From positions 588,176-652,175 of the forward strand of contig CBDAOB010000005.1 in the NCBI GenBank assembly GCA_965197905.1: 64,000 bases of DNA, read 5' to 3'. Position 1 is the first letter of the stretch, and each line of letters starts with the position of its first letter. Position numbers and translations under genes: made by a program. Of this stretch, positions 1,718-62,216 are shown piece by piece. The notes under the pieces were generated by a model. The model made no database searches, was not told the DNA's origin, and saw nothing but the letters and a program-made list of their open reading frames with translations. This DNA comes from Candidatus Latescibacterota bacterium. GTDB taxonomy: Bacteria; Latescibacterota; UBA2968; UBA8231.

Positions 1718-3043
1718 TCAGAAAACCGTCGTCAGCGCCCGCTCCAACGCCTCCAAGGTAGCCGTGATATCGTTCGTTTTGTGGGCGGCCGATATCGAAC
1801 ACTGTTTGGTGGCAACCGGGAAGAAGTAGACCCCGTTGTCGATCATGGCTCGGCGCATGGCTACATCTCGATCGAAGTCATGATGCTCCGCAAGATCGTG
1901 ATAATCCCGGGGCAGGTGTTGCATCAGGTAGAGGCAGAGCGCACCCCCCTGCCGAGAGACCCGACCGACGACCCCGTGCAAACTCAGCAGGTATTCGATT
2001 CCCTCCTGTAGCTGCGCTCCGAGATCGTCCATGTGGCGGTAGACGACGCCCCCACCCTCCTGAAGAACCTCGATAGTGGCGATGGCCGCGGCCACGGAAA
2101 CCGGGTGGGCGTTGTAGGTGCCGCCAATGAGGGGACGTTTCGTTGCATCGGGATCGGCGAACAGGTCCATGTACTCGGCTTTGCCGCCGATGGCAGAGAT
2201 CGGGAACCCATTGGCGATCGCCTTGGCGTAAAACGCCAGATCGGGTTGGACCCCACTCAGCTGGCTATACCCCCCCAGGCAGTAGCGAAAGCCGGTCTTC
2301 ACCTCGTCGAAGACCAACAGGAACCCGAATTCGTCCGCCAGCTCCCGCAAACCCTGCAGATATCCCGGCTCCGGTTTTACAATGCCAATATTCTGCAACA
2401 CCGGCTCCGTGATGAGCGCGGCGATCTCGTTCCTTTCACAGACGTGTCGCACCGAGGCCAGGTCGTTGAAATTGACTATATGGACCAGACCCTCCGCGGC
2501 CATCGGAAGACCCGAACCAAGCCGTCGGTAGGGATACTCGCCGGGGCACACCCGGGGTCCGATCTGGTCCAGGGGTGTCAATACGTTGCAGGCTATCTCG
2601 CTGTGCGAGCCGTTGAACCCCCCTTGCATCACAATGACGTGCTCGCGACCAGTGACGGAACGGGCAAGGCGCAGTGTGCCGAGGCTTGCCTCCGAGCCCG
2701 TCGTCATGAATTCAACCCTTTCGACTGCCGGGATATGGGTGCACACCAGCTCCGCCAGCCGGCCTTCCAACTCGTTGGTTCCCGAACCGAACAGGCTCAT
2801 GCCCTCGTCCATTACCCTCTTTACGGCAGCATTAACTCGGGGATCGTTGTGACCGAGGACGTGAGGCGCAAACGCGGCGTGGAAGTCGATGTAGCGGTTG
2901 CCGTCCACGTCCCACAGGTAGGCCCCCTGGCCCCGGGCGAAGGCGATGTTGGGCTCCACCTTGCGCGCACCGGACACCACCCCTCCCGGAATGTGGCGTT
3001 CGTTGCGCTCCAGAACCGCGGCTGAGCCGGGATGTTGAATCAA
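1718..3043 (-). CDS. Class-III (GSA-aminomutase-like) PLP-dependent aminotransferase
   Basis: 441-aa ORF. 'TTGSEASLGTLRLARSVTGRE', 'FDEVKTGFR' (PLP lysine) and 'LIGGTYNAHPVSVAAAIATI' are typical of glutamate-1-semialdehyde aminomutase-like aminotransferases. Confidence 0.8.
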   Translation of the reverse strand: MIQHPGSAAVLERNERHIPGGVVSGARKVEPNIAFARGQGAYLWDVDGNRYIDFHAAFAPHVLGHNDPRVNAAVKRVMDEGMSLFGSGTNELEGRLAELVCTHIPAVERVEFMTTGSEASLGTLRLARSVTGREHVIVMQGGFNGSHSEIACNVLTPLDQIGPRVCPGEYPYRRLGSGLPMAAEGLVHIVNFNDLASVRHVCERNEIAALITEPVLQNIGIVKPEPGYLQGLRELADEFGFLLVFDEVKTGFRYCLGGYSQLSGVQPDLAFYAKAIANGFPISAIGGKAEYMDLFADPDATKRPLIGGTYNAHPVSVAAAIATIEVLQEGGGVVYRHMDDLGAQLQEGIEYLLSLHGVVGRVSRQGGALCLYLMQHLPRDYHDLAEHHDFDRDVAMRRAMIDNGVYFFPVATKQCSISAAHKTNDITATLEALERALTTVF

Positions 3044-4345: not shown

Positions 4346-6241
4346 GTGAAGCTAACCAAGATGCTTCTCAGCGTTTTCGCGATCGCCCTTCTGAGCTTCG
4401 GTCTTGCCGGCGCCCAGACGGCGGTCGAAGGATTTTCGTTTCCCGAGGGCGAAAAGTTGCCCGTGCGCTCGGGGATTCCCACGCCTTTGCTTGTTTCCGC
4501 CTCTGACGTAAGCTGGAGCGGCAGCGGTTCGGCGACCTTCAGCTTCAATTCAAGCCAGCGCGGTACCGCCTGGGTGATCATTTACGAGAAGGGCAACAAC
4601 CAGACGGGCCGTCGTGGACCGGGTGGTGCCTGGCAGCGTTTGGTACCCCAGGATCTCTACGTCACTACCGTGCCCGCCTCTGGCCAGGCCATTGAGAGCG
4701 GTAACAACAGCATCGTCTGGGACGGCCGTGACTTCGAAGGCAACGCCGCCGGCGCCGGAGAGTACGAGTTCGACCTTGTCGTCGTGAACAATCTGGACGA
4801 CCTGGTTGTGGTCGGCCCCGCCTCAGGCCCCACCGGTTTCACCTGGCCGAACATCGACCTGACCAAGGACCCGGTCGAGATCTTCGTGCAGGAGTACGAG
4901 CGCAGCGTGCCCGACCGCGGTCATGCCATCGGCGACATGGTCCGGGGCACCATCGGCACGAACTACCTGACCAATCCGACCGCCTGGGAGCGCTGGTCCT
5001 ACAACAATGTCATGAACTGGGAAGGGGCGCGCACCGCGAGCGGCTTGCGTCAGGACGATGTGGACCCGGATATCTACTGGTCCAACGACTACACTGCCGA
5101 GTGCTGCAAGGGCATCTACAAGATGCGCATCAACCGCGCGGCGCAGAGCTGGGAAGGGGTTACCGACTTCGCCGAAGATGGCCGCTCGGTCAATGTCAAC
5201 GGCGATCGTATCCTGCAGTTCAAGCCGGAGGGAGACGTCATCTGGCAGACGCTGCACGGAGTCCAGGAGGTGCCCTTCAGCGCCATTGAGAAGAGGGACA
5301 AGACCTCCGGCGCCACCCTGACCGAGTTTGACGTGGGCGATTTTTATCACGTCATCCGTACCGATGACGAGGGTAACGAGACCCTGCGATCCGGCGGCCC
5401 GCGTCAGATCGACGTGGTAGGCGACCTGATCGTAACCTCTGCCTGGGGCCATCAGGCCATACTCGGCGTCAACAAGAACAGCGGTGAGGTTCTGTGGATG
5501 AACGACAACGGCGACGGCTATGGCGACCGGCTCGACCAAGAAGGTGCTGCGGCGATCGGTGGCGTTGCCAGCCCGTCTATCAACATCACCGGCTCGACCA
5601 TCGATCCGGGGAGTGGCAATTTTACCCTGTTCAACATGGTCGGGGTCAACGGTCCCACCACGTGGGGCGCCATTGGTCGCGACGGCACCGGAATCTTCTC
5701 CATCAGCTATCCCGTGGATTGGGCACGGGCTCGTCCCGGCTGCACGCGCTTCAACATGATCAATCAGGGAAGCCAGTATGACGGGCTCTACAGCTGCGTG
5801 AACCTGAACATGGTTGCCCAGGAGGATGGGACCCACCACGGCAACACCCCGGAAGGGAAATACGGTCCTAAGATGCTGGCACCGACCCCGTACGACGTGT
5901 TCAGCGGGCGGCTGGGCGGGGGCGTGACCGCGGTTTCGGCGAACGGAAGCGCCGGCACCCCGGACAGCTACACGCTCGGCGACGCCTATCCGAACCCGTT
6001 CAATCCGCAGACCAGCGTCGAATTCGCGGTGCCATCTGACGGCTTCGTAAAGATCGAGATCTTCAACTCGGTCGGTCAGGTGGTGGCCAGCATGGTCGAT
6101 CAGGATCTCAGTGCCGGTGCCTATACCGCCACCTGGGATGCTCTCGACTCCAGCGGGAGCCAGGTATCCAGCGGTGTCTATTTCTACCGCATGGAAGCCG
6201 GCGAATTCACCGCCACCCGCTCGATGACGTTACTGAAGTAG
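4346..6241 (+). CDS. Secreted protein with C-terminal T9SS-type (Por/FlgD-like) sorting domain
   Basis: GTG start with SD 'CAAGGAG'. Signal peptide 'MKLTKMLLSVFAIALLSFGLAGAQT'. C-terminal ~85 aa carry 'AYPNPFNPQTSVEFAV...VKIEIFNSVGQVVASM...SGVYFYRMEAG', the hallmark of the T9SS C-terminal domain. Confidence 0.7.
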   Translation: MKLTKMLLSVFAIALLSFGLAGAQTAVEGFSFPEGEKLPVRSGIPTPLLVSASDVSWSGSGSATFSFNSSQRGTAWVIIYEKGNNQTGRRGPGGAWQRLVPQDLYVTTVPASGQAIESGNNSIVWDGRDFEGNAAGAGEYEFDLVVVNNLDDLVVVGPASGPTGFTWPNIDLTKDPVEIFVQEYERSVPDRGHAIGDMVRGTIGTNYLTNPTAWERWSYNNVMNWEGARTASGLRQDDVDPDIYWSNDYTAECCKGIYKMRINRAAQSWEGVTDFAEDGRSVNVNGDRILQFKPEGDVIWQTLHGVQEVPFSAIEKRDKTSGATLTEFDVGDFYHVIRTDDEGNETLRSGGPRQIDVVGDLIVTSAWGHQAILGVNKNSGEVLWMNDNGDGYGDRLDQEGAAAIGGVASPSINITGSTIDPGSGNFTLFNMVGVNGPTTWGAIGRDGTGIFSISYPVDWARARPGCTRFNMINQGSQYDGLYSCVNLNMVAQEDGTHHGNTPEGKYGPKMLAPTPYDVFSGRLGGGVTAVSANGSAGTPDSYTLGDAYPNPFNPQTSVEFAVPSDGFVKIEIFNSVGQVVASMVDQDLSAGAYTATWDALDSSGSQVSSGVYFYRMEAGEFTATRSMTLLK

Positions 6242-6270
6242 GCCCGAACAACCTGCTTCGAGCAGTTGTA

Positions 6271-6308
6271 GCAGAGGGGGAGCACCTGCTCCCCCTCTGC
6301 TTTTTTTG
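6271..6308 (+). terminator. Rho-independent terminator
   Basis: Perfect 14-bp stem 'GCAGAGGGGGAGCA'/'TGCTCCCCCTCTGC' with a 2-nt loop, followed by TTTTTTT, 30 nt after the stop at 6241. Confidence 0.7.
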
Positions 6309-6328
6309 TGCGCAACCCCCCCAATCTG

Positions 6329-8332
6329 ATGCAATCCGGTAGACCAGAACCCCCCTCGAGGACGGAGGGATCGGCAGCCACCGTCGACACAGCGGAAACC
6401 TCGCGGCCGAGCATCTCTCCGCGGGGTGTCCTCCTGGGAGCGATCACGGCCTCGGCGATGCTGTATTACGTGGTTGTGGTGGGGCAGGGGATCGGTGCCG
6501 GTCGCTACGTAAACTCCCAGTTCCCCATGACGGCGTTCATGCCGTTTGTGCTCTGGCTCTTCATCAACGTGCTGTTGAAACGGTTGTGGCCCTCCCAGGC
6601 GCTCAGTCGCGGGGAGCTGCTCACTATTCTGACCATGGTCTGGGTTGTGGGCATCATGCCCCAAAGGGGGTGGATGAGCTTCTGGACCGCCATCATGGCG
6701 GGTCCCACCATCCTGGCTACCAAAGAGAACCTTTGGGCAGAGATCTTCTTCGACTACCTGCCGTGGCACGTATTCGCTCCGACCAAAGGGCGCATCCTGG
6801 ATCCGTTTTTTTTCGGCTTGGAAGAGGGGATGCCGTTGCCATGGGACGGTTGGCTGGGGGTGCTGGGGCAGTGGCTTGGGGTCTGCATGGCGATGGTGAT
6901 TTTCGGTTACTGCCTGATGGTTCTTTTCCAGAAGCATTGGGAGGATGGGGAAAAGCTCACCTTCCCGCTAGCGCAGCTACCCTTGGACCTGACCCGAGGA
7001 TTCGACCGCCATCGAATTCCCGATCTCTTTCGCCTGAGGCTCTTCTGGCTCGGCTTTTTCGTGGTTTTTATCACCCTCGCCTACAACGTAGTCACCTACT
7101 TTGTTCCCGGGCTGCCGCCAGTGGAGATCTGGACCAAACGCGTTCCCATAGAGCTTTTAGAAGACTTTCCGTCCGTTACCATTCGCGTACTGCCGATCGT
7201 GCTGGCGGTAACCTATCTCTGCCCCGTGGACATTCTGGGCAGCCTGGTCTTGTTCCATCTCCTCTACTTGGTCAAAGAGGGGTTGATACGAAGGGCCGGC
7301 TTCTCGGTAGAGGGATTCTCCGGAGTCGGCGCCACCGGACAGATCGCCGAATACAAACAGATCATCTTCATGGAGAGTTATGGCGCCCTGATCTTCGTCG
7401 CCCTTTGGTCCATCTGGCTCGCCCGCGGCCACCTGCGCTGGGTCTGGCGGCTGGTCTGGTCGGCGGGGGTTGATCGTGGGGAAGTCGCGCGTTACCGACT
7501 GGCCGCAGGAGGACTGGCCGTCTCAGCGATCTATGTGATCGTCTGGGGCATGGGATTGGGCATGGGTTTGCCGTTAACTCTGCTGGCTTTCGTGGTAATG
7601 GTCCTGACCTATTTCGTAATCGTCAAGCTGATCGCCGCCACCGGGTTCTCCTACCTCCTTCCAAACGAGCCCCACGCCAAGGGGCAGTCTTTCATCGCCG
7701 AGCTCGTGGGTACCATTCATCTTTCGCCCCGGGAGGTGGTGGCGTACAAGGTGTTCGCCAGCCGCGCCTTCTTCGGCGACACCCGGATTCCCGCCTGGCC
7801 GGCGATCACCCACCACCTACGCAGTTTCTCACTCGAGCGTCAGCCAGGGTGGGTAACCGCCACCATTTTCGTCGCTTTCCCGGTCGGGTTTCTGGTGACC
7901 GCAACCTCTACCATCGAACTGAATTACCAGGAGGGCAGCTCCGCCGGCTTGTCGGGATTTCTATTCAACGATCTCGTCAACCTGATGAACAACCCTTCGG
8001 AGTCCACGGTGGGCAAGTGGCTCGTCTGGGGCACCGGATTCGTTGAGGCGGCCGGCATCGCCTATCTTCGGGGACGCTATCACTGGTTCCCACTTCACCC
8101 GATGGGGTTGGCTTTTCAAGCCACCACAGGGGTCTGGGTCTACTGGTTCAGCCTTTTCCTGGTTTGGACCGTGAAGCTGGTCCTGCTGCGATACGGGGGT
8201 GTTAGCGCCTTCCTCAAGGGAAAGCCATTCTTCTATGGCATGGCGGTCGGTTACGTGCTGGGTGTAACACTCTCTGGTATCGTGGATCTTTTTTGGTTTC
8301 CGGCGGGTGGTCACCGGATGCATGCATGGTAG
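6329..8332 (+). CDS. Large polytopic membrane protein, paralog 1 of a 4-member uncharacterised family (~650 aa, >=12 predicted TM helices)
   Basis: ATG at 6329; the ORF-track GTG at 6308 lies inside the terminator T-run. The protein is highly hydrophobic. It shares blocks with the other three copies: 'RGELLTI..MVWVVG', 'NLWAEIFFDYLPWH', 'EKLTFPLAQLPLDLT', 'YLCPVDILGS', 'WSIWLARGHLRWVW', 'VKLIAATG', 'FGDTRIPAWP', 'HWFPLHPMGLAFQ', 'LLRYGGV..KPFFYG'. Confidence 0.7.
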   Translation: MQSGRPEPPSRTEGSAATVDTAETSRPSISPRGVLLGAITASAMLYYVVVVGQGIGAGRYVNSQFPMTAFMPFVLWLFINVLLKRLWPSQALSRGELLTILTMVWVVGIMPQRGWMSFWTAIMAGPTILATKENLWAEIFFDYLPWHVFAPTKGRILDPFFFGLEEGMPLPWDGWLGVLGQWLGVCMAMVIFGYCLMVLFQKHWEDGEKLTFPLAQLPLDLTRGFDRHRIPDLFRLRLFWLGFFVVFITLAYNVVTYFVPGLPPVEIWTKRVPIELLEDFPSVTIRVLPIVLAVTYLCPVDILGSLVLFHLLYLVKEGLIRRAGFSVEGFSGVGATGQIAEYKQIIFMESYGALIFVALWSIWLARGHLRWVWRLVWSAGVDRGEVARYRLAAGGLAVSAIYVIVWGMGLGMGLPLTLLAFVVMVLTYFVIVKLIAATGFSYLLPNEPHAKGQSFIAELVGTIHLSPREVVAYKVFASRAFFGDTRIPAWPAITHHLRSFSLERQPGWVTATIFVAFPVGFLVTATSTIELNYQEGSSAGLSGFLFNDLVNLMNNPSESTVGKWLVWGTGFVEAAGIAYLRGRYHWFPLHPMGLAFQATTGVWVYWFSLFLVWTVKLVLLRYGGVSAFLKGKPFFYGMAVGYVLGVTLSGIVDLFWFPAGGHRMHAW

Positions 8333-8401
8333 AAGCGCCTCCTGCTCGAAGCTGTTGGCGGATTTCATTCCGCCGTAGATTCTGCCCGTGGCAGTAATAC
8401 C

Positions 8402-9832
8402 ATGAGATCTATCGACTCGGCGTGGTGGCACCTGAGTCTTCGCCGCCGAACGACCTATCTTTTGTCAGCTCTCGCCATGCTGGGTTTGGTTTTGATGTGG
8501 GGCTTCTGGCCGCGACCACTGACCCCGCCGACTATTCCAGAGAGTCTATACGGGGCAGATCCCGCGGCTTATCGTCTCGTTGAGAGAGGAGTCAACGAGG
8601 TCTCCTCCAATACAACAGACCCGTTGGCCTGGTTGCGCCTCGGCTTCGCCTACGAAGCCAACGAACTGGACTCGCTCGCACTGGAGAGTTATCTGAACGC
8701 CTTGGATCTGGACGGTGGAGATCCCAAGATCTGGTATCGTCTGTCCCAAGTCCGCAAGCGTCTGGGCGATAGGCCGGCGGCCGTCGAGGCAGCGAAAGTC
8801 GCAGTCGATCTGGCGCCCGGTTACGCACCTCTTCGGCTCCGTCTTGGACTCTGGCTCCTCGAACAGGGGAAGCTGACGCAAGCCGACCACTGGTTTGCCC
8901 AAGCCGCCGAACTCGACCGGCACGAGCCGGCGGGAACATGGGGTCGGGCGCGGGTCATGATGCAGCGGAATCACCCCCACAAAGCGGAGAAAATCCTTCG
9001 GCGTCTAGACACCGAGTTGCCCGGGCATTCATACACGCACCTCCTCCTTGCCGCAGCCTACAGACAACTTGGCCGTGCCGTCGATTCAGCAGAGGAGTTT
9101 TCCAAGGGGCAGGGCGCCTATTTCAGTTTTTCCGATCCCTGGAATCAGGACCTTAACCCCTACCAAACGGGATTGATGCATCAGTTGCGGGCATCGGAGC
9201 AGCTAATCGAGTCTGGGCGCCTGGACGAAGCCCGAGGGCTTCTCCAACGGCTATACACCCAATATCCAGACCATTTTTCCGTGCTGAACAATCTTGGAAT
9301 CGTTTATACCAAGATAGGGATGACTCAGGAGGCCATTAGGATGTTCCGTCGCGCGCTGGCGCGGCACCCGAACAATCCCCATCTACATTCCAACATAGCT
9401 ACCACCTATCTGGTAGCCGGCAATTCGAGCATGGCGATGAAACATTTGGATCGTGTTGTTGGGCATCCGAGTCTCGACAATGTGCCCGAGAAACGGGGCC
9501 TGGCACTGTTGCAAGCACGCCGACCGCTCGATGCGGCTATTGCGCTTGAGCGCGCTCATGCTGCAGATCCTGACAATGCGCTCGTTCTAGTACAACTCGG
9601 CGTAGCTCAATGCGATTTGAGGTTATGGAAGCAAGCCCTAGACAAATTCGAGCGGGCGCTCGCGTTGGACTCTACACTGGTCGAAGCTCAATTGGGCGTC
9701 GGCACGGCGGCCATGAATCTGGGGAGGTCGCAAAGGGCGCAAGAAGCGTTTAGGCAGGCATCGATTCTCGATCCCTCGAACGAAATGAGAATGCTTCTTC
9801 AAAGAATCCGCAATCCACAAAACTTCAACTAG
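8402..9832 (+). CDS. TPR-repeat protein with N-terminal membrane anchor
   Basis: 476 aa. One N-terminal TM segment ('LLSALAMLGLVLMWGFW') is followed by multiple 34-residue TPR-like repeats (W/LG..Y.....A...Y..AL.L.P). Confidence 0.65.
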   Translation: MRSIDSAWWHLSLRRRTTYLLSALAMLGLVLMWGFWPRPLTPPTIPESLYGADPAAYRLVERGVNEVSSNTTDPLAWLRLGFAYEANELDSLALESYLNALDLDGGDPKIWYRLSQVRKRLGDRPAAVEAAKVAVDLAPGYAPLRLRLGLWLLEQGKLTQADHWFAQAAELDRHEPAGTWGRARVMMQRNHPHKAEKILRRLDTELPGHSYTHLLLAAAYRQLGRAVDSAEEFSKGQGAYFSFSDPWNQDLNPYQTGLMHQLRASEQLIESGRLDEARGLLQRLYTQYPDHFSVLNNLGIVYTKIGMTQEAIRMFRRALARHPNNPHLHSNIATTYLVAGNSSMAMKHLDRVVGHPSLDNVPEKRGLALLQARRPLDAAIALERAHAADPDNALVLVQLGVAQCDLRLWKQALDKFERALALDSTLVEAQLGVGTAAMNLGRSQRAQEAFRQASILDPSNEMRMLLQRIRNPQNFN

Positions 9833-9839
9833 GAATTCC

Positions 9840-11507
9840 ATGACGCGAGTGCTCGTCTCGCTTTCTCTGCCGACCCTATGCGCCGTAAGCTGCCAGTTTG
9901 GGGTGGATGCGGACAACGAAGGGGCTCCGTGGTTTGAAGAGCGATCTATAGAGAGGGGAGTCGTGTTTCGGCTGGAATCTGGACATGATAAAAGGTATTT
10001 GATGCCGGAACTGACGGGTGGCGGGGCAGCACTATTCGACATGGACGCCGACGGCGATCTCGACGCCTATCTAGTACAGGGGGGTGGTCTAGAAACCAAG
10101 GCGGAATCCACGTCCACAAATCAGCTGTTCAGCAACGATGGTGCCGGAATATTCGAGAACGTTACCACTGGTAGCGGAAGCGCCGACCCTGGATACGGTA
10201 TGGGTGTTGCAACGGGCGACTACGACAATGACGGTGATGCCGATGTTTACATCGCCAACGTCGGTTCCAATGCGCTGTTGAAAAACCTCGGAAACGGTCG
10301 ATTCGATGACGTCACGCGAGAGGCGGGCGTCGGAGACGAAGCCTGGGGCACAAGCGCGGTTTTTGTCGACTACGATGCCGATGGTGATCTGGATCTCTTC
10401 GTAGCAAACTACATGCACTGGTCACCCGCCATCGAACGCCCGTGCACGAACGCCTCAGGTTTGCCCGACTACTGTTACCCGCCGGTCTACAAGATGCCGG
10501 CGGTCGACGTATTGTACCGCAATGATGGCACCGGCAGCTTCTCGGACGTGTCTGACGAGGCCGGAATGGAGACGGCATTCGGATACGGTTTCGGCACTGT
10601 AGCCGGCGATTTTACGGGAGATGGACTTGCCGACATCTTCGTGGCGAACGACGGCTCCCAGAACCAGCTATGGGTGAACCAGGGCGGCGACAGTTTCGCT
10701 GATCAGGCCCTCTCCAGGGGTTGTGCCCTGGGCGAGAGCGGCCGGCCAAAGGCGGGGATGGGCGTGACTTCCAACGATTTCAACGATGACGGGAAGCCCG
10801 ACCTATTGGTCGTAAACCTGCAATCTGAAACGGACTCCTACTTTCGAAATGAGGGCCCATATTTCGTCGACGCGTCAACCTCGCTGGGATTGTCCGGCGG
10901 AAGCGACCTCTATACACGTTTTGGGGTCGGAATAGTCGACTTCGACAACGATGGCTATCTGGACGGCTATTTCGCCAACGGCCGGATCAACAAAGTCGAT
11001 CTCGATGTCACCGATCGTTACGCCGAGCCGAATTTGCTCTACAGTGGGGTGGCGGGAGTGCGTTTCGAGGAAGTGACCCCGCGCGGGGGTACCAAAGAGC
11101 TACTAGTCGGGACGAGCCGTGCCGCCGCTTTCGGCGACGTGGACAACGACGGTGGCGTCGATGTATTAGTCGTAAATCGTAATGCCCAGGTCTACCTGCT
11201 CCACAACCTGGTTGGTAAAAAAGGAAACTGGATCACGTTTCGCTTAGTCAATTTAAACGGTGCTGACGCTCTCGGGGCGATATTGTCCGTGGATGTTGCC
11301 GGCCAGCGCCGGTGGCGAGAAGCGCGAACGGCATACAGCTTCCAAGCGGCCAACGATCCGAGGGTGCACATCGGTTTGGGAGATATCTCTAACATCGCGG
11401 CTGTCGAGGTGCGGTGGCCAGAGGGTAAGACGGAGCGCTTCGGTGACTGCGCCGCCAACCAGGTAATTCAGCTAGTGCAGGGAACGGGAGAGGCTGTGAC
11501 GCCGTAA
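9840..11507 (+). CDS. CRTAC1-family protein (FG-GAP/VCBS repeats plus ASPIC/UnbV C-terminal domain), secreted/lipoprotein
   Basis: Signal/lipobox-like N-terminus. Repeated 'DxDxDGDLD' FG-GAP calcium-binding loops ('DMDADGDLD', 'DYDNDGDAD', 'DYDADGDLD', 'DFDNDGYLD', 'DVDNDGGVD'). C-terminal 'GAILSVDVAG...VHIGLGD...VEVRWPEG' is ASPIC/UnbV-like. Confidence 0.8.
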   Translation: MTRVLVSLSLPTLCAVSCQFGVDADNEGAPWFEERSIERGVVFRLESGHDKRYLMPELTGGGAALFDMDADGDLDAYLVQGGGLETKAESTSTNQLFSNDGAGIFENVTTGSGSADPGYGMGVATGDYDNDGDADVYIANVGSNALLKNLGNGRFDDVTREAGVGDEAWGTSAVFVDYDADGDLDLFVANYMHWSPAIERPCTNASGLPDYCYPPVYKMPAVDVLYRNDGTGSFSDVSDEAGMETAFGYGFGTVAGDFTGDGLADIFVANDGSQNQLWVNQGGDSFADQALSRGCALGESGRPKAGMGVTSNDFNDDGKPDLLVVNLQSETDSYFRNEGPYFVDASTSLGLSGGSDLYTRFGVGIVDFDNDGYLDGYFANGRINKVDLDVTDRYAEPNLLYSGVAGVRFEEVTPRGGTKELLVGTSRAAAFGDVDNDGGVDVLVVNRNAQVYLLHNLVGKKGNWITFRLVNLNGADALGAILSVDVAGQRRWREARTAYSFQAANDPRVHIGLGDISNIAAVEVRWPEGKTERFGDCAANQVIQLVQGTGEAVTP

Positions 11508-11512
11508 GAATT

Positions 11513-13969
11513 ATGCGATCAGCTCGGAATCTCTTTCTTTTTCTGCTGTTCACACTCCCGGCGGCTCCAGCTGACTCCACCGACTCCGGTCATGAGCGGA
11601 TGCGTGCGGCTCTCAAGAGGATCGCCGACCATCCGCCGGAAGGTCATTGGGTTTTCCCCACCCTGCGCGCGGAACTCTTGCAACGCAAGCTTGACGAGGT
11701 CGAAGCGCAGGCCAAGGCCGGACAACCTGCTGAAAACCCGTTTACTCTTTGGCGACTCAACTTCGATCTCGGGCAGGCTTTGGTCAGATCGGGAGACCCG
11801 GAGCAGGGCATCAAACATCTGCTGCAATCCCGAGGCGTGCTCAACGAGCTGGAACGCCAATTCGCTGCGCTCGCTCGACAGGGCGGAGATGCACAACAGC
11901 TCAAACGCATTCAATTGCGGATGGGCAATTTTTCGGTGCAGACCGCTTTCTACCTGGGCATCTCCAACATTCGTCTCGGAGAGGACCAGAACTGCTCGGT
12001 GCAGAACCTCGCCGAAGCCTGCATTCTGCCCATCCAGGGAAAGGGTATCCACACCCAGAAGGAAGGTTCGCGCAACGCTATTCGCTATTTCCGGGAGGTT
12101 TTGGACCACCCTTACTGGCGCCTGAACCAGGGGGATGCGGAGGATCTAAGCAATGCCTCGGGAGGGATGAGCTCCGAGCGTCTGGGCGGTTTGGCGGCGC
12201 CGAACAAACGCACCGCCGACCAACTGGTTCATTTTCGCGAGGCCTCACGATGGCTGCTCAACATCGCCTACATGACCCTGGGAGAGTACCCGGAGTCTGT
12301 TCCAAAGAAACACCTCATTCAACCCCGCGTGTTCGCGGCCGACATTGCGTTTCCCCGTTTCGAAAACGTCGGCCCGAAGCTCGCGTTGGATACCTTCAAT
12401 CTCTGCGGTGGTGCCATCGTCGACGACTTTGACGGCGACGGCAATCTGGACATCGTCACCAGTACCTGGGATCTTGCCGGCCAGATGCGTTATTTTCGCA
12501 GTAAGGGCGACGGAACCTTTGTGGATGAAACCGACAAGGCTGGGCTGACCGGCTTTTTTGGCGGGCTCAACATGGTCCAGGCGGACCACGACAACGACGG
12601 CGACGTCGATATCTTCGTCCTGCGCGGCGCCTGGCTCTCTAGATGGGGTCGGCACCCGAACTCCCTGTTGAGCAACAACGGCGACGGCACCTTCACCGAC
12701 ATCACCTACGCAGCCGGATTGGCCGAGGTGAACTACCCCACCAAGTCGGCAACCTGGGGCGACTACGACAACGACGGCAACCTGGATCTCTTCGTCGTCA
12801 ACGAGACCGATGGCAGCATTGACGCGCCGTCTCAGCTGTTTCACAACAACGGCGACGGCACCTTCACCGACGTTGCCGACAAAGCCGGGGTCCGCAGCCG
12901 GTGTTTCGGCATGGGCACCGTCTGGGGCGACTACGACGGCGACGGGTTCCTCGATCTATATGTAGGGGATTGCCAACCGGCAAAGCTGTTTCACAATAAC
13001 GGCGACGGCACCTTCACCGACGTGGCACGGCGGCTGGGAGTGCGGGGACCGGGAAGACCGTTTGCTGCCTGGTTCTGGGACTTCGACAACGACAGCGCCC
13101 TCGACCTCCTGGTTAACGCCTCTTCGGGTTCGGTGGGGGTGCTGTCCCTGAACCCGCTGGGTGTCGATGTGGAAGAAGTCGAGCCGTCGCGCCGCTCGCT
13201 GCAACAGTCGGTGGACGTTGAGGTCATGCACCTCTACCGGAACGACGGCAAAGGAGGTTTTAGCGAGGTCGCGACACAGCAGGGGTTGACCTACCCATCG
13301 CAGCCGATGGGAGCGAATTTCGGCGATCTGGACAACGACGGGTTCCTCGATTTCTACCTCGCTACCGGCGACGTGTTCTACTCGGAGCTGCGACCGAACG
13401 TCATGTTCCGGAACCGCGGCGGAAACCGGTTCGAGAACGTTACCATGGCGGGTGGATTCGGACACCTGCAGAAGGGGCACGGGGTATCGTTCGCCGACCT
13501 GGACAACGACGGGGACCAGGATGTCTACGTGCAGATGGGAGGGGCTTATCCAGGGGACAAATACAGCGATGCCTTGTTCGAGAATCCGGGATTCGGCCAT
13601 CGCTGGATTGCGCTGAAGCTGGAGGGACGTGCCTCGAATCGATCGGCGATCGGCGCCCGCGTTCATGTGCGAATTCGGGAAGGTGACAAGGAGCGCTCCA
13701 TCTATCGGCACGTAAACAGCGGCGGCAGCTTCGGCTGCAACCCGCTGCGGCAAACAGTGGGTCTGGGAAAGGCCGACAAGATCCTCGCGCTGGAGATCTT
13801 ATGGCCTGCCACCGGCCGCACACAGCGCTTTGAGGACCTGGGTCTGGATCAAGCGATTCGGATCGTCGAAGGAGAATCGACCTACCAATCACTGCGGCTT
13901 TCCAGTTTCAAACTGGGGGGCGGCGACGCCGCGTCCGTTCCCGCAGCGGACCCGCACCAACACCACTAG
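11513..13969 (+). CDS. CRTAC1-family protein with N-terminal helical (TPR-like) domain, secreted
   Basis: Signal peptide 'MRSARNLFLFLLFTLPAAPA'. C-terminal FG-GAP repeats ('DFDGDGNLD', 'DHDNDGDVD', 'DYDNDGNLD', 'DLDNDGFLD', 'DLDNDGDQD') and UnbV/ASPIC tail ('RSAIGARVHV...VGLG...LEILWPATGRTQRF'). Three near-identical 'LFHNNGDGTFTDV' repeats are also near-identical at DNA level (12837, 12984, ~12669). Confidence 0.8.
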   Translation: MRSARNLFLFLLFTLPAAPADSTDSGHERMRAALKRIADHPPEGHWVFPTLRAELLQRKLDEVEAQAKAGQPAENPFTLWRLNFDLGQALVRSGDPEQGIKHLLQSRGVLNELERQFAALARQGGDAQQLKRIQLRMGNFSVQTAFYLGISNIRLGEDQNCSVQNLAEACILPIQGKGIHTQKEGSRNAIRYFREVLDHPYWRLNQGDAEDLSNASGGMSSERLGGLAAPNKRTADQLVHFREASRWLLNIAYMTLGEYPESVPKKHLIQPRVFAADIAFPRFENVGPKLALDTFNLCGGAIVDDFDGDGNLDIVTSTWDLAGQMRYFRSKGDGTFVDETDKAGLTGFFGGLNMVQADHDNDGDVDIFVLRGAWLSRWGRHPNSLLSNNGDGTFTDITYAAGLAEVNYPTKSATWGDYDNDGNLDLFVVNETDGSIDAPSQLFHNNGDGTFTDVADKAGVRSRCFGMGTVWGDYDGDGFLDLYVGDCQPAKLFHNNGDGTFTDVARRLGVRGPGRPFAAWFWDFDNDSALDLLVNASSGSVGVLSLNPLGVDVEEVEPSRRSLQQSVDVEVMHLYRNDGKGGFSEVATQQGLTYPSQPMGANFGDLDNDGFLDFYLATGDVFYSELRPNVMFRNRGGNRFENVTMAGGFGHLQKGHGVSFADLDNDGDQDVYVQMGGAYPGDKYSDALFENPGFGHRWIALKLEGRASNRSAIGARVHVRIREGDKERSIYRHVNSGGSFGCNPLRQTVGLGKADKILALEILWPATGRTQRFEDLGLDQAIRIVEGESTYQSLRLSSFKLGGGDAASVPAADPHQHH

Positions 13970-13988
13970 TTCGGCTAAAGGAGAGCGC

Positions 13989-15527
13989 ATGATTTCGCCG
14001 CTACGAAACATTTCACACCCTTTCAAACTGCCCTCTGACATTATCTACTTTCACGACTGGCGCTACGTGCACCACGGCAGTCACTCCACCGGCTGGAGGA
14101 ATAAGGAGGGGGAGTGGCTGCGTATCTGGTCGGCCGACCCGGTGCCCCCGCTGCGTCACGACCCCGGATACATGCCAATGGGTATTCGACTCCGTGCCAA
14201 ACCGGCGCAGAAAAGCGAGCCCTTCTATTTGCCCGCCGAGGACGAGGGTTTCATCTTCGCCGGCGTCATGATGCAGGACGAAGGGCGTTATCGCTGGTGG
14301 TACGAATCATTCCCGGCGGAGCATATCACCAGCGACAAATACGCCATGGGGGATAGCGATTACGTGCGCTACGGGGAATCCGACGACGGTTGGAGCTGGC
14401 GATTCCCGGAGCTGGGTCAGATCGAGCGAAAGGGCACCACAAACAACAACATCGTGTACGGTCCCCCGGTCATCGATCCCACCGGCTTGCACGGGCCCTG
14501 CATCTTCAAGGATCCCTCGGCGCCGCCGGAGGAGTGCTACAAGATGATCCACACCGGGCACCTGACGCCAGCGATGAAAGAGCGCTACCTGAAGGAGCGA
14601 CCGGACGAGGTGGGCGCCCTGAATACGGCGGAGCGTTGGGACGGCCTCTTTGGGGCAATCTCTCCCGACGGCATCAGCTGGACGCCGCTGCCCGAGCCGC
14701 TGGTGGCCCAGATCAGCGATACCCACAATGCCTGCGAGTACGATCCGGTGCTGGGGCAGTACGTGGCGTACGTCCGCAACCATTTCTTTGCCAGGCGCAC
14801 CATCGGCCGCAGCGCCAGTGACGATTTTCGTCGGCTGCCCCTGTCCGAGGATCTCTTCTGGCCGGGCACTGTCGAAGAGGCGTACGACCTGTGGTACACC
14901 GCCGCAAAGACCAAGATGCCCGGCACCACCGACTACCACATCATGTTTCCGCTGCGCTGGCGCCTCATCGACGACTCCTTCAGCTTCGTGCTGGCAGCCA
15001 GCCCGGACAACATCCTGTGGAGCTACGTCCCCGGGGGCGCGGTCTGCGAGCCAGGTGATTCCGGAGATTGGGTAGCCGGTGCGGTGGCTCCGGGCGTGGG
15101 TATGGTGGAGCTGCCGGACAACAAGATGGGGATCCCGATCGTCGGCTCTCCGGAACCGCACAAGCATTTGCGGCAGCCGCCCCACGGACATATGGCGTGG
15201 GCGATCTGGCCGAAAGGACGATTGGTGGCGCTGGAGGCACCGGTGGAAGGGAGTTTCCGAACCTTTCCTCTGGAGACCGAGAAACGAAACATCCACCTGA
15301 ATTTCAAGACACCCCCCGGGGGGTATGTTCAGGTTCAGGTTACCGATCGCCGCTACCAGCCGCTTCCCGGCCGCAGCTTCGAGGATTGCGACTGGTTGAT
15401 CGGCGATCAGATCGATCGGCAGGTGAGTTGGAACGGGGAGACCGACCTCGGACACGACGGAAGCGGCACTCTTTCCCTTGGATTTCGCATGCGCTGCGCC
15501 GAGCTATACAGTGTCGAGTTCAGATAG
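13989..15527 (+). CDS. Cytoplasmic BNR/Asp-box beta-propeller protein (glycoside-hydrolase-like), paralog of 54499..55965
   Basis: Start chosen at ATG 13989, preceded by SD 'AAAGGAGAG'; the ORF-track start 13830 overlaps the upstream gene. Asp-box-like 'ESDDGWSW' is followed by 'NNIVYGP', mirroring 'TSDDGEHWEQ...NNIAYDP' in the paralog. Confidence 0.5.
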   Translation: MISPLRNISHPFKLPSDIIYFHDWRYVHHGSHSTGWRNKEGEWLRIWSADPVPPLRHDPGYMPMGIRLRAKPAQKSEPFYLPAEDEGFIFAGVMMQDEGRYRWWYESFPAEHITSDKYAMGDSDYVRYGESDDGWSWRFPELGQIERKGTTNNNIVYGPPVIDPTGLHGPCIFKDPSAPPEECYKMIHTGHLTPAMKERYLKERPDEVGALNTAERWDGLFGAISPDGISWTPLPEPLVAQISDTHNACEYDPVLGQYVAYVRNHFFARRTIGRSASDDFRRLPLSEDLFWPGTVEEAYDLWYTAAKTKMPGTTDYHIMFPLRWRLIDDSFSFVLAASPDNILWSYVPGGAVCEPGDSGDWVAGAVAPGVGMVELPDNKMGIPIVGSPEPHKHLRQPPHGHMAWAIWPKGRLVALEAPVEGSFRTFPLETEKRNIHLNFKTPPGGYVQVQVTDRRYQPLPGRSFEDCDWLIGDQIDRQVSWNGETDLGHDGSGTLSLGFRMRCAELYSVEFR

Positions 15528-15550: not shown

Positions 15551-16889
15551 ATGACTGTCGCCGGCGGACAGGCCATGGCCGGGTGGGCTGAAGCGGACAT
15601 AACGCCTCCTCTGGGATTTCCCATGGGTGGGCGTGGGCCCGTCTTCGACCCAGCCGAGCAGATCGCCGATCCGCTCCTGGCGCAAGTCACCATCCTGCAG
15701 GATCGACGGGGACGGCGCGTTATTCTGGTATCCCTCGACATCCTGGGATCGACCCCTTCCGTAGCAGATCCAATCCGCCATCAGCTGGCGGCAATTGCGG
15801 GCGCCACTCCCGAAGCGGTAGTCCTCAATTATTCCCATACCCACAGCAGCGGCATGGGCTTGCTGGAGATCTATCCGTACAGCGGTAAGAAACCGGCACA
15901 GATAGGGGATTACGAGACCCGGTTGTCGAAGACGCTCCTGCGCCTTGACGCACGATGCTTTGGACCGTCTCTCGCCAGTGCGTGCCTACTGGCGCAACGG
16001 AGAGAGCGATCTGGCCATCAATCGCCGGCGCAAGAACGAGAACGGCATCACCGAGCATCGACCGAACAAGGACGGGTACTACGATCCCAATCTCTGGGTG
16101 TTGGAACTGGAGGGGTCTGACGGCCGAGCGATTCTCTACAGCTACGCCTGCCACCCAGTGGTGCTGTACGGGGCAGAGTGGCAGACGATCTCGGCGGACT
16201 TCCCGGGCAGGACCCGCCTAACTCTCAGAGCGGCGTTTGGAGAGGCAACTCACGTGCAGTTCCTTCAGGGTCTGGCGGGAAGCGTGCGGCCGCGTATCCT
16301 CGCCGATCTCGCGAAAGAGGTGTTCGTACGCGGATCGCGGGAGACGCTCGAGCGCACCGGCGACCAGTTGGCCGATGATTTGATGGAAACTCTGCGAACT
16401 ACGGCCAACGAGATAGAGGTGGAACTGCATGCGGCGATGGGGTACGAGCCTGTCCGGCCGGGCCCACCGTTGGACCCGGACTCAGTGGAGGAGATGGGAG
16501 ACTCCTGGGGTGGAGCCGATGTCTACTGGCGAGAACGCCTGCAGAACGGGCCGCCCTGCGATCTGGTTCAGCCCTGGCCCGTCGGCCTGATTCAGCTGGA
16601 CCGGAAACACCTGATCGCCTATATGGCCAGCGAGGCTGTAGCCGAATGGCGTCCGCTGATCGAGGAGGTGCTTTCGGGGTACGAGCTGGCCTGTTGGGCT
16701 TACTGCCAGCACGACCACACCTACCTGCCGACGGACGAGCTGATTGCGGACGGCGGGTACGAGGTGGATCGGGCTCCGCTGTGCACCAACTTCTGGCCGC
16801 AGCCGCTGGCACTGGGAACGGACGACTTGATCAGGACCGAATTCGCCCGGTTGCGAGAGCGCGTTGAGCGGGAGCGAGCACGACCTTAG
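15551..16889 (+). CDS. Neutral/alkaline ceramidase-like hydrolase, interrupted by a frameshift near 15940-15960
   Basis: The N-terminal part (frame of 15551) has 'ADITPPLGFPMGG' and 'NYSHTHSSG', typical of the neutral ceramidase N-domain. The C-terminal part (frame of 15945) has 'AINRRRKNE...PNLWVLELEGSDGRAILYSYACHPVVL', also ceramidase-like. Together the two ORFs give the expected ~450 aa. Confidence 0.5.
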
Positions 16890-22798: not shown

Positions 22799-24967
22799 TT
22801 GCCCATTCACTCTGAAGACCTTGGTTTTGCACCTCCTCACCGGCCCACAAAGGTGTTCGGACTGCATGGATATCTTTCCCATGCCAGCGTGTCACGGGGA
22901 CATCAGCTGGAGATACATGCGAGCAACGATGGCCCACTACACCTTCAGCTGCTCCGACTTGGGGTCGGCAAGGTGAACCGGCAGGCCGACGCGATTTCAT
23001 CGACGGTCCCCATATCCGACCTGGGTCGCGTCGACTGCGACGAGCGGCCTGTTCATTGCGGAAGTTATGTCCATGTAGCCGACGTGTCCGTTCCTACTGT
23101 GTTCGGGTTGGAGGTCTGGTTTCGACAGCTGGCTCACCGGGGATGTGCGGGGCTCATCTCCCACGATCGTTTTGCGTTGTCGCTCGGTGCGGAAGGCAGG
23201 CTCGAATTTCGCCTCGGTGAAGCGGCCATCAGGGCGCCGGATGCCCCCTCCTTGAAGATCTGGCATCACGCCTGGACCCAATGCAACGCAGACAAGATCG
23301 AATTATTTCTGGATGGCGACCTCGTGGGCAGTGCGAGCATCCAGAGTGGATCAGAGGGAGCCGGCGGCAGGGAGGGGACGCTCCGCATGGGTGCCTTGCT
23401 CAACGACAACAACGAGGCAGATCATCTGCTCACCGGTGATCTCTGTGCGCCAGCAGTCTACGACCGGGTGTTCAGTGCAGAGGAAATACGGCATCGCTTT
23501 CGCACCAAAGAGCTGGAGCCCGCTTCCGGTTGCATCGGCCACTGGAAGTTCGATGGCCTGCACGGTCCGCCGTTCCGCGATACCTCTGGCTCGGGGCGGC
23601 ACGGCCAAGGTGTCAACTATCCGCTGCGCATGATACCGGGGCCAGGACTGCAAGAGGAACAACCCTGGGCGGAGTTCGATCCGACATCCGACCCGAACCA
23701 TGGCCACGCCGTGCGCCTGATGGCGGATCAGCTGGTGGACTGCCGCTGGCCCCAGGTCCTGACCTGGACGGTTCCGGACGATCTGCCTCAAGGCCAGTAT
23801 GCCATGCGGCTTGAGAATGAAGGCGGAGACTCGAGAGACCTCCCGTTCATCGTGAGGGCAGCGAAACCTGCTGCCACGCTTATGGTTCTGTCGACGACGG
23901 GCACGCGTGTGGCCTACAACTACATGCCGTTTGGTGATCCGGAATTGGACTACGGCGCATATCTGAATCATCCCAGCTATCCGATCCTTGGGCATCTGCT
24001 CGGTCAACGGCGACCCGCTCGGGGCGACCCCTATTTCTACCAGGTGGTCAATTTCGAGCTTCCCTTGTGCGCCTGGTTGGATCAGCATCGTATACCGTAC
24101 GACCTGTATAGCGAGTGGGACCTGGAGTCGGATCCATCGCTGTTGGTTCATTATGCTGCGGTGGCGTGGGCGGGTCACTGTGAGTACTGGACGGCCACAC
24201 GGTATGAGGGGTTGTGTCGCTTTCGCGATCGGGGCGGTCACATCTTGTCGCTCTCTGGAAATACCTGCTTCTGGCGGGTCAGTATCGATCTCGAGAACGA
24301 GGTCATGGAGGTCCGCAAGCACGGTGCCGAGCAGGCCCGAGATAGCTGCATAACCGTAGATGCCATGGTAGACAACTCCCATTGGCACCAGATGGATCAC
24401 CAGCCGGGCACCCTGATGCAGGCATCGGGTTGGCCCCAGTACCGGTTGGGCCTGGGCATGACCAATGGTTGGTCAGTTCCCTGTCGCATCGACGGCGATA
24501 GCGCCGGCTACGAGGTGCTGGAGCCGGAGCACCCCTTGTTTCGCGATCCCCACGAGGTGTCGGTCGAGACTCCGTTTGCCCCCGGCGGCGCCGGTTACGA
24601 GACCGATGTCAGCTACCGGTCAATGGTAGACCGATTCGGCGAGGCTCAGAACCCGGTCCGATCGCCCCGACCGTCGCGGTCTGATGCGAGCACGGAGGGC
24701 GCAGCGAAAAACAGCGGCGCCGTACTCGCGCGGGCGCGCCTCCAGGACGCTCTTGTCCTGGACCTCGACATGAACAGCACCATCGGCGAGCTGTGGTCCG
24801 AGATGCAATTCGGAGAATCGGAAACTGGAGGCATCACTTTCGCCGCCGGCAGCTGCATGGCGGCGCTGGTCCTTCTGGAGGATCGGAACTTCTCCAATTT
24901 CATGCTCAATGTTCTGCATCGAATGGGCTTGAACGAAAGTCGCACGAGCGGAGCTGCCGCAAGTTGA
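22799..24967 (+). CDS. Large LamG-like / N,N-dimethylformamidase-beta-subunit-like (DUF6605-like) protein
   Basis: 722 aa. The N-terminal half has a concanavalin/LamG-like pattern. The central region ('LMVLSTTGTRVAYNYMPFGDPELDYGAYLNHP...YDLYSEWDLE...AWAGHCEYWTATRYEGL...GGHILSLSGNTCFWRVSI') resembles the DMFase large-subunit family. The stop lies 2 nt before the start of membrane paralog 2. Confidence 0.45.
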   Translation: MPIHSEDLGFAPPHRPTKVFGLHGYLSHASVSRGHQLEIHASNDGPLHLQLLRLGVGKVNRQADAISSTVPISDLGRVDCDERPVHCGSYVHVADVSVPTVFGLEVWFRQLAHRGCAGLISHDRFALSLGAEGRLEFRLGEAAIRAPDAPSLKIWHHAWTQCNADKIELFLDGDLVGSASIQSGSEGAGGREGTLRMGALLNDNNEADHLLTGDLCAPAVYDRVFSAEEIRHRFRTKELEPASGCIGHWKFDGLHGPPFRDTSGSGRHGQGVNYPLRMIPGPGLQEEQPWAEFDPTSDPNHGHAVRLMADQLVDCRWPQVLTWTVPDDLPQGQYAMRLENEGGDSRDLPFIVRAAKPAATLMVLSTTGTRVAYNYMPFGDPELDYGAYLNHPSYPILGHLLGQRRPARGDPYFYQVVNFELPLCAWLDQHRIPYDLYSEWDLESDPSLLVHYAAVAWAGHCEYWTATRYEGLCRFRDRGGHILSLSGNTCFWRVSIDLENEVMEVRKHGAEQARDSCITVDAMVDNSHWHQMDHQPGTLMQASGWPQYRLGLGMTNGWSVPCRIDGDSAGYEVLEPEHPLFRDPHEVSVETPFAPGGAGYETDVSYRSMVDRFGEAQNPVRSPRPSRSDASTEGAAKNSGAVLARARLQDALVLDLDMNSTIGELWSEMQFGESETGGITFAAGSCMAALVLLEDRNFSNFMLNVLHRMGLNESRTSGAAAS

Positions 24968-24969
24968 GC

Positions 24970-29020: not shown

Positions 29021-29025
29021 CGCGG

Positions 29026-47410: not shown

Positions 47411-49092
47411 TTACTCGTACACCACGCTTACGCCGCGATGGCGCAGTGCGCCGATCTGGAAGGTTGCTGCCAGGACCGAGAGCGGGTTCCCAGCCAAGGT
47501 GATCACGGTTTCCTCGCCAATAGCCAGGTTCTCAACCAGAGGGGTAAGATCGGATATTTCGTTCGAGGACAGGAGTAACCGACGGAGATTCTGCGAGCCC
47601 GCCAGCGGCCCAAGATCACTGATCTGATTTGAAGAGACATTCAATTCTTCCAGGTTCGTCAACCTGCAACGAAGGCGATGTCGTCGATGCCGTTGTGGCT
47701 GAGTTGCAGGTGGGTCAGCGCCTTGTTGGCCAGGGATGGGACACCGCTGATCTGGTTGTTGTTGGCAACTAGGCTTTCCAGCTTTGGGAGGTTTCCGAGG
47801 GTGGACAGGTCGGAGATCTGATTCAGCGAAATTCTGAGCTCGCGCAGATTGACGAGGCTGCCCAGCGGTCCCAGATCCTCGATCCTGTTGCGATCCAACA
47901 AAAGTACTTCGAGGTCTGCCAGGGTACCCAACGCGGAGATATCGACGAGGCGATTCTGGCTGAGGACCAATCTCTTCAATCGGGATAAACCGGAAAGCGG
48001 CTCCAAGCTGCCAAGCGGATTGTGGGCGAGTCCGAGCTCACGAAGATTGATCAGACCGGACAGGGCGGAAAGGTCGACGATTCCGTTGAAGTCGAGTGTC
48101 AGAAACTCGAGCTGAACCAAAGCGGCCAGCGGAGTGATATCGACGATCTGATTCGTGCCCAGCGACAGAACCCGCAGATTGCGCAGACCAGCCAGCGGGG
48201 TCAGGTCGGTAATTCGATTCAAACTGACTCGCAATTCCTCCAGACGGGTAAGTTTCTCGATGCCACCAAGGCTGGTGACAATGCTGTTGATTTGCTGGAG
48301 CGCCCTGACTCCGGCTACATCCGTCAGGGTGATCTCCCCCTCCGATATCTGGCTGGCGCGCCGAAGCGATGAGAATAGGAAGGGGTCGTCGAAAACGAGC
48401 GGATCGCGAATGCGCATCACCTCGAAGTTCAGCGGAGCCCGCCGGTCGATCTCCTGTCCTTGAAGAGCCAGCGTTTCGATGTCGAATCCGGAGATGATCA
48501 CAGAGAACAAATCGGGGTGCGCCTGGGCTGGAATCGCAGTCTTTGCGGGTCGAGCTGAAAGGATGGTGCTGGGGCCGTCTATCAAGGTCATCTTTCGCGT
48601 TTGGGAAGAAGAGCCCGCCTTCAGACGGTAGAAGTAGACCCCCGCCGCGACTCCGAAACCGTTTCGGTCCCGCCCGTGCCAGGGTATCTGGTATTGGCCC
48701 GCAGGGCGTTCGTCATCGAGCAGGATTTGCACCGGATGCCCGAGGCTGTTGTAGACCGCTAAACGCACATGGGATGGGCGGTCGAGCCGGAAGGAAATGA
48801 GGGTGCTGGGATTGAAGGGATTTGGATAGTTCGGCGACAGGCGGAACCCCTGGGGAACGCCTGAGTCGCGCTCGAAAATCGAAGTGGGAATATCGACGGC
48901 GATGACATAGGCCCCAAAGGTATCGGTGGTATCCGACACGAAACTGTTCCCCGTCGCTTCGTTGGTCAGCTCCACCATGGCACCGGAGACGGCAACACCC
49001 TGGCCGTCGGTAACCTGTCCCGAAAGGTTAAGTGCGCTGGCGGTTTGCACTGCGAGCAGAACGGCGATCGTCAGCGCAACAATCAGTCGCAA
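47411..49092 (-). CDS. Secreted leucine-rich-repeat (internalin-like) protein with N-terminal CarboxypepD_reg-like and internal T9SS-CTD/FlgD-Ig-like domain; 1-nt frameshift near 47660
   Basis: Signal peptide 'MRLIVALTIAVLLAVQTASA'. 'SGQVTDGQGVAVSGAMVEL' is CarbopepD_reg-like. The internal 'NYPNPFNPSTLISFRL...VYNSLGHPV...GVYFYRL' is a T9SS-CTD-like domain. It is followed by >12 22-residue LRRs ('LxxLxxLxLxxNxIxDLxPLxx'). The repeat register continues exactly across the junction 'SHNGIDDIAFVAG|LTNLEELNVSSNQISDL', and GGTTG versus the expected GGTTTG gives a -1 indel. Confidence 0.6.
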
Positions 49093-60363: not shown

Positions 60364-60380
60364 GTCGAAGCGTTTCGTTG

Positions 60381-62162: not shown

Positions 62163-62216
62163 TTCATCAACTCCTTCTGCTATTTCGCTCGTGATGCGAA
62201 AACACAACGAGACACA

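Follow-up and report, generated by a model that had tools for sequence, protein, structure and literature searches.

The question raised by the locus considered here is whether a gene standing apart from three tandem relatives is an intact member of their family or a remnant of duplication, and what the proteins of this family do. The locus is part of a 64,000-nt stretch of contig CBDAOB010000005.1 of a Candidatus Latescibacterota bacterium (hereafter, the window). The gene, located at 6329..8332 on the + strand, is referred to as copy A, and its tandem relatives as copies B, C and D. The Latescibacterota, a phylum without cultured members that occurs in the sea, in sediments and in sponges, are regarded as degraders of complex organic matter. 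The initial annotation of the window described copy A as a fourth, dispersed copy of the membrane-protein family of the trio and interpreted four copies in 25 kb as lineage-specific amplification. The observation was confirmed and is far beyond chance, and the interpretation was partly supported. Within a family expansion that is large and old, copy A is an ordinary and conserved member. The family consists of domains of unknown function for which modeling predicts an oligopeptide transporter (OPT)/Yellow Stripe fold, and it recurs in Latescibacterota beside surface proteins of the type IX secretion system (T9SS).

Copy A and Its Relatives in the Window

The members of the family found in the window are as follows:

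6329..8332, + strand: copy A, a 667-aa membrane protein with DUF6785 and DUF6784 and an OPT/Yellow-Stripe-like predicted fold (Pfam, alignment, AlphaFold 2 model, Foldseek, substitution rates)
24970..26916, + strand: copy B, 648 aa, DUF6785 and DUF6784 (Pfam, alignment, tree)
27083..29020, + strand: copy C, 645 aa, DUF6785 and DUF6784 (Pfam, alignment, tree)
29026..30972, + strand: copy D, 648 aa, DUF6785 and DUF6784, beginning 5 nt past the stop codon of copy C (Pfam, alignment, tree)

In copy A, the Pfam domain PF20581 (DUF6785) was found with 255.2 bits (cut-off 25), residues 31–536 corresponding to profile positions 2–498 of 498, and PF20580 (DUF6784) with 64.3 bits (cut-off 26.4) at the C-terminus (residues 565–655). 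All four copies matched PF20581 across the 498-position profile (E values from 1e-75 to 1e-84) and also PF20580. In full-length alignments, the identity of copy A with copies B, C and D was 54, 55 and 47%, respectively, and the corresponding TBLASTN scores were 685, 685 and 576 bits. Thus, copy A belongs to the family of the trio from end to end. A fifth copy was not found in the 64 kb of the window. The open frame of copy A extends over 6308..8332 with an alternative GTG start at position 6308, and the ATG at 6329 is retained in the closest ortholog. The longer and divergent N-terminus noted in the initial annotation is real but trivial: the tail comprises 28 residues, compared with 8–23 in copies B–D and 17–24 in the orthologs of copy A, is poorly conserved and was modeled with a pLDDT below 50.

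Two mechanically called open reading frames (ORFs) on the + strand, 27829..30972 (1047 aa, running into copy D) and 24793..26916 (707 aa, running into copy B), were considered as fusion proteins and rejected. They are artefacts, since long alternative frames stay open at high G+C content. Some relatives are named "DUF6785 family protein" by NCBI, and the literature library that was searched contained no paper mentioning DUF6785 or DUF6784.

The sequence of copy A was examined for signs of decay. It holds all 61 of the family-invariant columns of a 58-sequence alignment, so that every conserved block is present, as had been claimed, and at the 44 positions conserved in at least 90% of 244 sequences it mostly shows the consensus residue. 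The ratio of nonsynonymous to synonymous substitution rates (dN/dS) against the ortholog from a sister genome was 0.086 at a dS of 0.50, and it ranged from 0.04 to 0.14 against more distant orthologs. The AlphaFold 2 model was confident along the full chain (pLDDT 88.8, pTM 0.91). Since the invariant residues are all kept and dN/dS is low, copy A is not degenerate, and a pseudogene reading was rejected. Judged by these sequence characteristics, copy A is intact, functional and under purifying selection.

Age and Spread of the Family Expansion

When one genome per species was scanned, 158 confirmed relatives were obtained, and the gene contexts and copy counts reported here were obtained from the best 79 loci of these. 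The labels L001, L002 and so on denote family loci in other genomes. Nearly all of the 79 loci belong to metagenome-assembled genomes of Candidatus Latescibacterota, and a few are labeled Gemmatimonadetes or Planctomycetota. Within these loci alone, single chromosomes carried at least 20 (OZ244619.1, 5.9 Mb), at least 13, at least 12 and at least 9 copies. The family as a whole is of modest size: among 1.84 billion representatives, 5393 clusters (50% identity) were matched at E ≤ 1e-3. A TBLASTN search of plasmid records gave zero matches. The family is therefore not a ubiquitous housekeeping transporter; it is a strongly expanded membrane-protein family of Latescibacterota.

The four window copies share 47–61% identity, and the dS values between them (1.4–2.7) are saturated. 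A neighbor-joining tree of the four copies and their homologs revealed that each copy has its own orthologs in other genomes, with identities of 64–96%. Those of copy A were found in L001 (93%), L002 (83%) and L003/L004 (73%), those of copy B in L050 (96%) and L071/L074 (~65%), those of copy C in L050 (93%) and L062 (76%), and those of copy D in L050 (88%) and L003/L004 (70%). Small indels aside, the window and OZ244235.1 (L001 plus L050) are syntenic. In both L003 and L004 the orthologs of A and D lie just ~7.5 kb apart, so copy A is less dispersed than it appears and was formerly nearer to the cluster.

The saturated dS, the copy-specific orthologs and the multi-copy genomes indicate that the expansion is old and Latescibacterota-wide, and a recent tandem burst was rejected on the basis of the first two. 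The family has indeed been amplified in the lineage, but the four copies in 25 kb are not the amplification event. The opposite explanation, that a recent local amplification produced copy A as a duplicate now redundant or in decay, draws on the presence of four copies inside 25 kb and on the somewhat longer N-terminal tail. It is at odds with the low dN/dS, the complete set of invariant residues, the confident full-length model and the saturated synonymous sites between paralogs, as well as with orthologs of 73–93% identity that have the same upstream gene in four other genomes. The invariant residues, the orthologs and the substitution rates already refute this explanation.

Architectural variants of the family were also found. 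P0239 (2120 aa), from a 56-member Latescibacterota cluster, contains MacB_PCD (residues 975–1083) and FtsX (1190–1301) fused to C-terminal DUF6785 (1483–1983) and DUF6784 (2018–2110); full-length fusions of this type were found on several independent contigs. In the proteins P0188 (849 aa) and P0200 (874 aa), DUF6785 and DUF6784 are separated by an insert of ~230 aa. To judge from these sequences, such an insert is probably the reason for the two separate Pfam entries of the family.

Predicted Fold

The model of copy A contains ~14 long helices and several short ones, and 11–14 hydrophobic segments were found in its hydropathy profile. A Foldseek search of the PDB with this model gave a sole significant match, namely barley Yellow Stripe 1 (HvYS1; 7wst/7wsr), an Fe(III)-phytosiderophore transporter. 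The match to 7wst_A had an E value of 2.4e-8, a probability of 1.00 and TM-scores of 0.57/0.62 over ~680 columns. To our knowledge, HvYS1 is the only OPT-family transporter with a solved structure. Members of the OPT family have 16–17 transmembrane segments that arose from internal duplications, transport peptides and iron-chelates, and are widespread in prokaryotes (PMC3061005).

The sequence comparisons weigh against placing the family of copy A with the OPT transporters. The OPT domain PF03169 gave no match in Pfam even at E ≤ 10, the OPT models of NCBIfam gave no match (E ≤ 0.01), and a search of PDB sequences with the family profile found no relative at E ≤ 10. An hhalign comparison of the N-terminal and C-terminal halves revealed no internal repeat (probability 0.2%). 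The family profile aligned to the HvYS1 sequence alone gave a non-significant probability of 0.4%. A comparison of 244 DUF6785 sequences with 106 PF03169 Yellow Stripe-like (YSL) proteins was also non-significant (P 0.017, probability 2.7%); the alignment was collinear, and the template profile comprised only plant proteins, which differed little among themselves. An equivalence of the KLTFP motif of the family and the KLTYPSG motif of YSL proteins received no support from this alignment and is not claimed.

Because no sequence bridge to OPT was found, the family is not assignable to PF03169. On the evidence of the model, DUF6785/DUF6784 proteins appear to have the OPT/Yellow-Stripe fold, with core and scaffold domains, and the family appears to be a branch of this fold that is unrecognizable by sequence. 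The fold match offers a point of entry to the structure and mechanism of a family of domains of unknown function.

T9SS Protein Gene and Hairpin Upstream of Copy A

The initial annotation placed copy A downstream of a terminator and of a gene for a T9SS-sorted protein. Both features were confirmed:

4346..6241, + strand: T9SS-sorted secreted protein of neighbor cluster c4, with a signal peptide, an Ig-like domain, a beta-propeller and a C-terminal sorting domain (Pfam, NCBIfam, AlphaFold 2, Foldseek)
6270..6301, + strand: hairpin resembling an intrinsic terminator, between the c4 gene and copy A, with a 14-bp stem (10 G–C pairs) and a loop of 4 followed by a T-run

The sorting domain of the c4 protein matched TIGR04183 with 34.7 bits (cut-off 23) and PF18962 with 27.8 bits (cut-off 27), and its N-terminus contains a hydrophobic helix (residues 2–24). 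The model of this protein (pLDDT 80) matched generic propellers, including PorZ, YncE and BtuG. PorZ, a T9SS surface component, was the best global match, though a weak one (TM-score 0.27); BtuG is a B12-capturing surface protein.

A c4 gene was located within 10 kb of a family gene in 28 of the 79 loci, representing seven distinct transporter clades. In the A clade it invariably precedes the transporter gene as its immediate same-strand neighbor, with a gap of 67–95 nt. The identities between c4 proteins and those between the adjacent transporter paralogs were correlated with r = 0.98 overall. For the divergences of seven clade representatives r was 0.62, a value reached in 142 of 5000 permutations. 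These sequence data are consistent with duplication of the c4 gene and the transporter gene as a pair.

The hairpin and the T-run are kept in L001–L004 and L051; the stem sequence is altered in L002–L004 and L051, and the position is constant. The same long hairpin was found in L055, where the T-run is not clear. An Rfam scan around 6270..6301 gave only sub-threshold chance matches. By analogy, a hairpin after the gene for the secreted protein resembles the arrangement in binding-protein/permease operons, in which the leading gene is expressed at a much higher level.

Other Neighboring Genes

The other genes flanking the family in the window include the following:

1718..3043, − strand: divergent class-III aminotransferase, retained beside the c4–copy A pair across the A clade (L001–L004)
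8402..9832, + strand: TPR protein (Pfam), not present in sister locus L001
9840..11507, + strand: CRTAC1-type protein with FG-GAP_3 and UnbV_ASPIC (Pfam)
11513..13969, + strand: second CRTAC1-type protein with FG-GAP_3 and UnbV_ASPIC (Pfam)
13830..15527, + strand: 565-aa ORF of cluster c1, a recurrent neighbor, the true start of which is probably downstream of 13969
22799..24967, + strand: protein with Laminin_G_3 and DMFA2_C (Pfam), the stop codon of which abuts the ATG of copy B

The Pfam analysis thus bore out the TPR protein, the two CRTAC1 proteins and the LamG/DMFase-like protein of the initial annotation. Of the neighborhood links suspected there, those with T9SS proteins and with CRTAC1-type proteins recur elsewhere; for the latter, homologs were found no more than 10 kb from a family gene in 22 of the 79 loci. 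The LamG/DMFase protein was found near the family only in the syntenic sister locus L050 (1/79), says little about the family as such and was rejected as a general partner. The c1 protein matches nothing in Pfam, NCBIfam or PDB sequences, and its homologs were located at most 10 kb from a family gene in 27 of the 79 loci. The otherwise syntenic sister genome lacks the genes at 8402..11507 of the window, namely the TPR gene and the first of the two CRTAC1-type genes; there (L001, 12004..12205), the second CRTAC1-type gene directly follows copy A.

The commonest neighbor (40/79 loci, often as tandem pairs; for example, L006:147-3080, L031:16183-18978 and 38 other loci) was c2, a secreted protein of 900–1000 aa that is absent from the window. 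Its members have a signal peptide and D/N-rich calcium-binding-like repeats, and many end in ...GFTEYGR[LF][LFI]. No match to c2 was found in Pfam, NCBIfam or PDB sequences; it is possibly an outer-membrane component. A further neighbor cluster (cluster 26) was a shadow ORF from greedy ORF calling and was treated as an artefact.

Across the loci, the family is accompanied by genes for Gfo/Idh/MocA, xylose-isomerase-like TIM barrel, PhyH, FGE-sulfatase, Amidohydro_2, Peptidase_M19, GH43, GH127, GHL6/GHL10, BNR_2, MR_MLE and gamma-glutamyltranspeptidase proteins. The catabolic genes in the window encode the class-III aminotransferase, a phosphotriesterase-family protein, amidohydrolases, Gfo/Idh/MocA and a 2-hydroxyacid dehydrogenase. 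In L083, a GHL10-like gene (6397..8004) overlaps the start of the DUF6785 gene (8001..9974) by 4 nt, which suggests translational coupling of the two sequences. In one transporter clade, a gene for a membrane protein of ~311 aa with 6–7 hydrophobic segments is located directly upstream of the DUF6785 gene and abuts or overlaps its start (L060:9081-10028, L067:9029-9964, L078:8996-9931).

Other observations in the window concern a neutral/alkaline-ceramidase-like gene (15551..16889, + strand), which is split into overlapping ORFs (15551..16120 and 15945..16889). In the sister genome it is a single 462-aa ORF (L001, 16183..17571), which suggests that the split in the window is due to a frameshift or to an error of sequencing. 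On the − strand, genes were found for an LRR protein with a FlgD_ig domain (47659..49092), a multihaem cytochrome c with MtrC/MtrF-like domain matches (50863..52854) and an Opp/Dpp-type ABC peptide transporter (58514..63338; SBP_bac_5, two permeases and an ATPase).

Proposed Function and Alternatives

On balance, it seems likely, with some reservation, that copy A is an inner-membrane secondary importer with an OPT fold, probably elevator-type and ion-coupled. By analogy with barley Yellow Stripe 1, it would perform ion (proton)-coupled, elevator-type import of a small organic solute or a short oligomer. In about a third of the loci, substrate may be captured or processed outside the cell by the T9SS-anchored beta-propeller protein and then imported. 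The old paralogs, at least 20 per genome and sited among catabolic genes, would have become adapted to a variety of small organic substrates. The polar residues conserved throughout the family, namely N80, E96, E133/N134, E208, R366, H368, R390, H590 and K616, are candidates for coupling or binding; E96 and N80 are located in predicted helices. In this proposal, we infer the transporter activity, its direction, the energy coupling, any substrate and a functional link with the T9SS protein. One may speculate that the class-III aminotransferase gene kept beside the A-clade pair hints at an amine-bearing substrate.

A wider and distinctly more tentative suggestion is that the c4 protein, the DUF6785 permease and, in many loci, c2 form an undescribed nutrient-acquisition module, a counterpart of Sus-type systems that was duplicated and diversified at least 20 times per genome. 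Capture or processing of the substrate at the surface would then be followed by elevator-type secondary transport inward. If the pairing with T9SS proteins is functional, it would show how Latescibacterota couple cell-surface capture to import and would give metagenome annotators a marker for substrate-utilization loci of this phylum.

Besides the sequence comparisons above, several features of the loci count against import of this kind. About two thirds of the 79 loci contain no c4-type gene within 10 kb, and the terminator between the c4 gene and copy A argues against their simple co-transcription. The neighborhoods are heterogeneous and therefore give no substrate. In addition, a plain secondary importer would not be expected to have a subfamily fused to an ABC permease of the MacB/FtsX type.

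The fusion also bears on the idea that the family is an exporter or a component of envelope biogenesis that moves, for example, a lipid-linked or anionic glycan or a molecule attaching or modifying T9SS cargo, as MacB/FtsX-type systems act on the envelope. The repeated adjacency to T9SS-sorted proteins, the PorZ match of the c4 protein and the large secreted c2 as the commonest neighbor, with no database match, fit this idea as well. However, the match to PorZ is a weak one that stems from a generic propeller and a sorting domain, the only structural relative of the family is an importer, and the neighbors are mostly cytoplasmic catabolic enzymes, with c4-type cargo missing from most loci. At least 20 diverged paralogs per genome better fit diversification of substrates than a single role in biogenesis, and we regard an export or envelope function as unlikely. 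The family could also be a functional equivalent of OPT/YSL proteins, that is, a transporter of metal chelates (siderophore or nicotianamine type) or oligopeptides. The fold shared with an Fe(III)-phytosiderophore transporter speaks for this, as do the substrates and the wide prokaryotic distribution of the OPT family (PMC3061005) and the Peptidase_M19, gamma-glutamyltranspeptidase and class-III aminotransferase genes of some neighborhoods. Such a role nevertheless seems improbable in view of the lack of sequence similarity to OPT/YSL and of the many glycan and sugar-acid catabolic neighborhoods (GH43, GH127, GHL10, BNR_2, MR_MLE, Gfo/Idh/MocA). Neither chelator-biosynthesis genes nor TonB-dependent receptors were found among the annotated recurrent neighbors, the window already holds a canonical Opp-type ABC peptide transporter, and at least 20 paralogs are excessive for metal-chelate uptake alone. 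Import of small organic substrates remains the preferred reading.

Comparison with Known Systems

The DUF6785 family resembles the OPT transporters, and HvYS1 in particular, in its size (~650–680 aa) and in being, according to the predicted model, a polytopic all-helical protein with many short or broken helices. It differs in having no detectable sequence similarity to them, other conserved motifs and no sequence repeat. The contexts also differ: those of OPT/HvYS1 are peptide or metal-chelate, whereas the DUF6785 family, with at least 20 paralogs per genome, is found in loci of glycan and organic-acid catabolism together with T9SS cargo.

The loci are also comparable to the polysaccharide utilization loci and the BtuG–BtuB systems of Bacteroidota. 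In both cases, the gene for a surface-exposed beta-propeller protein has genes for an uptake component and for catabolic enzymes as neighbors, and a genome contains many versions of the module. Neither a SusC-type TonB-dependent receptor nor a SusD-type lipoprotein was found among the annotated recurrent neighbor clusters and contexts of the family. The surface protein of Latescibacterota is T9SS-sorted and not a lipoprotein, and the conserved uptake component, to which it may be functionally coupled, is predicted to be an inner-membrane protein with the OPT fold.

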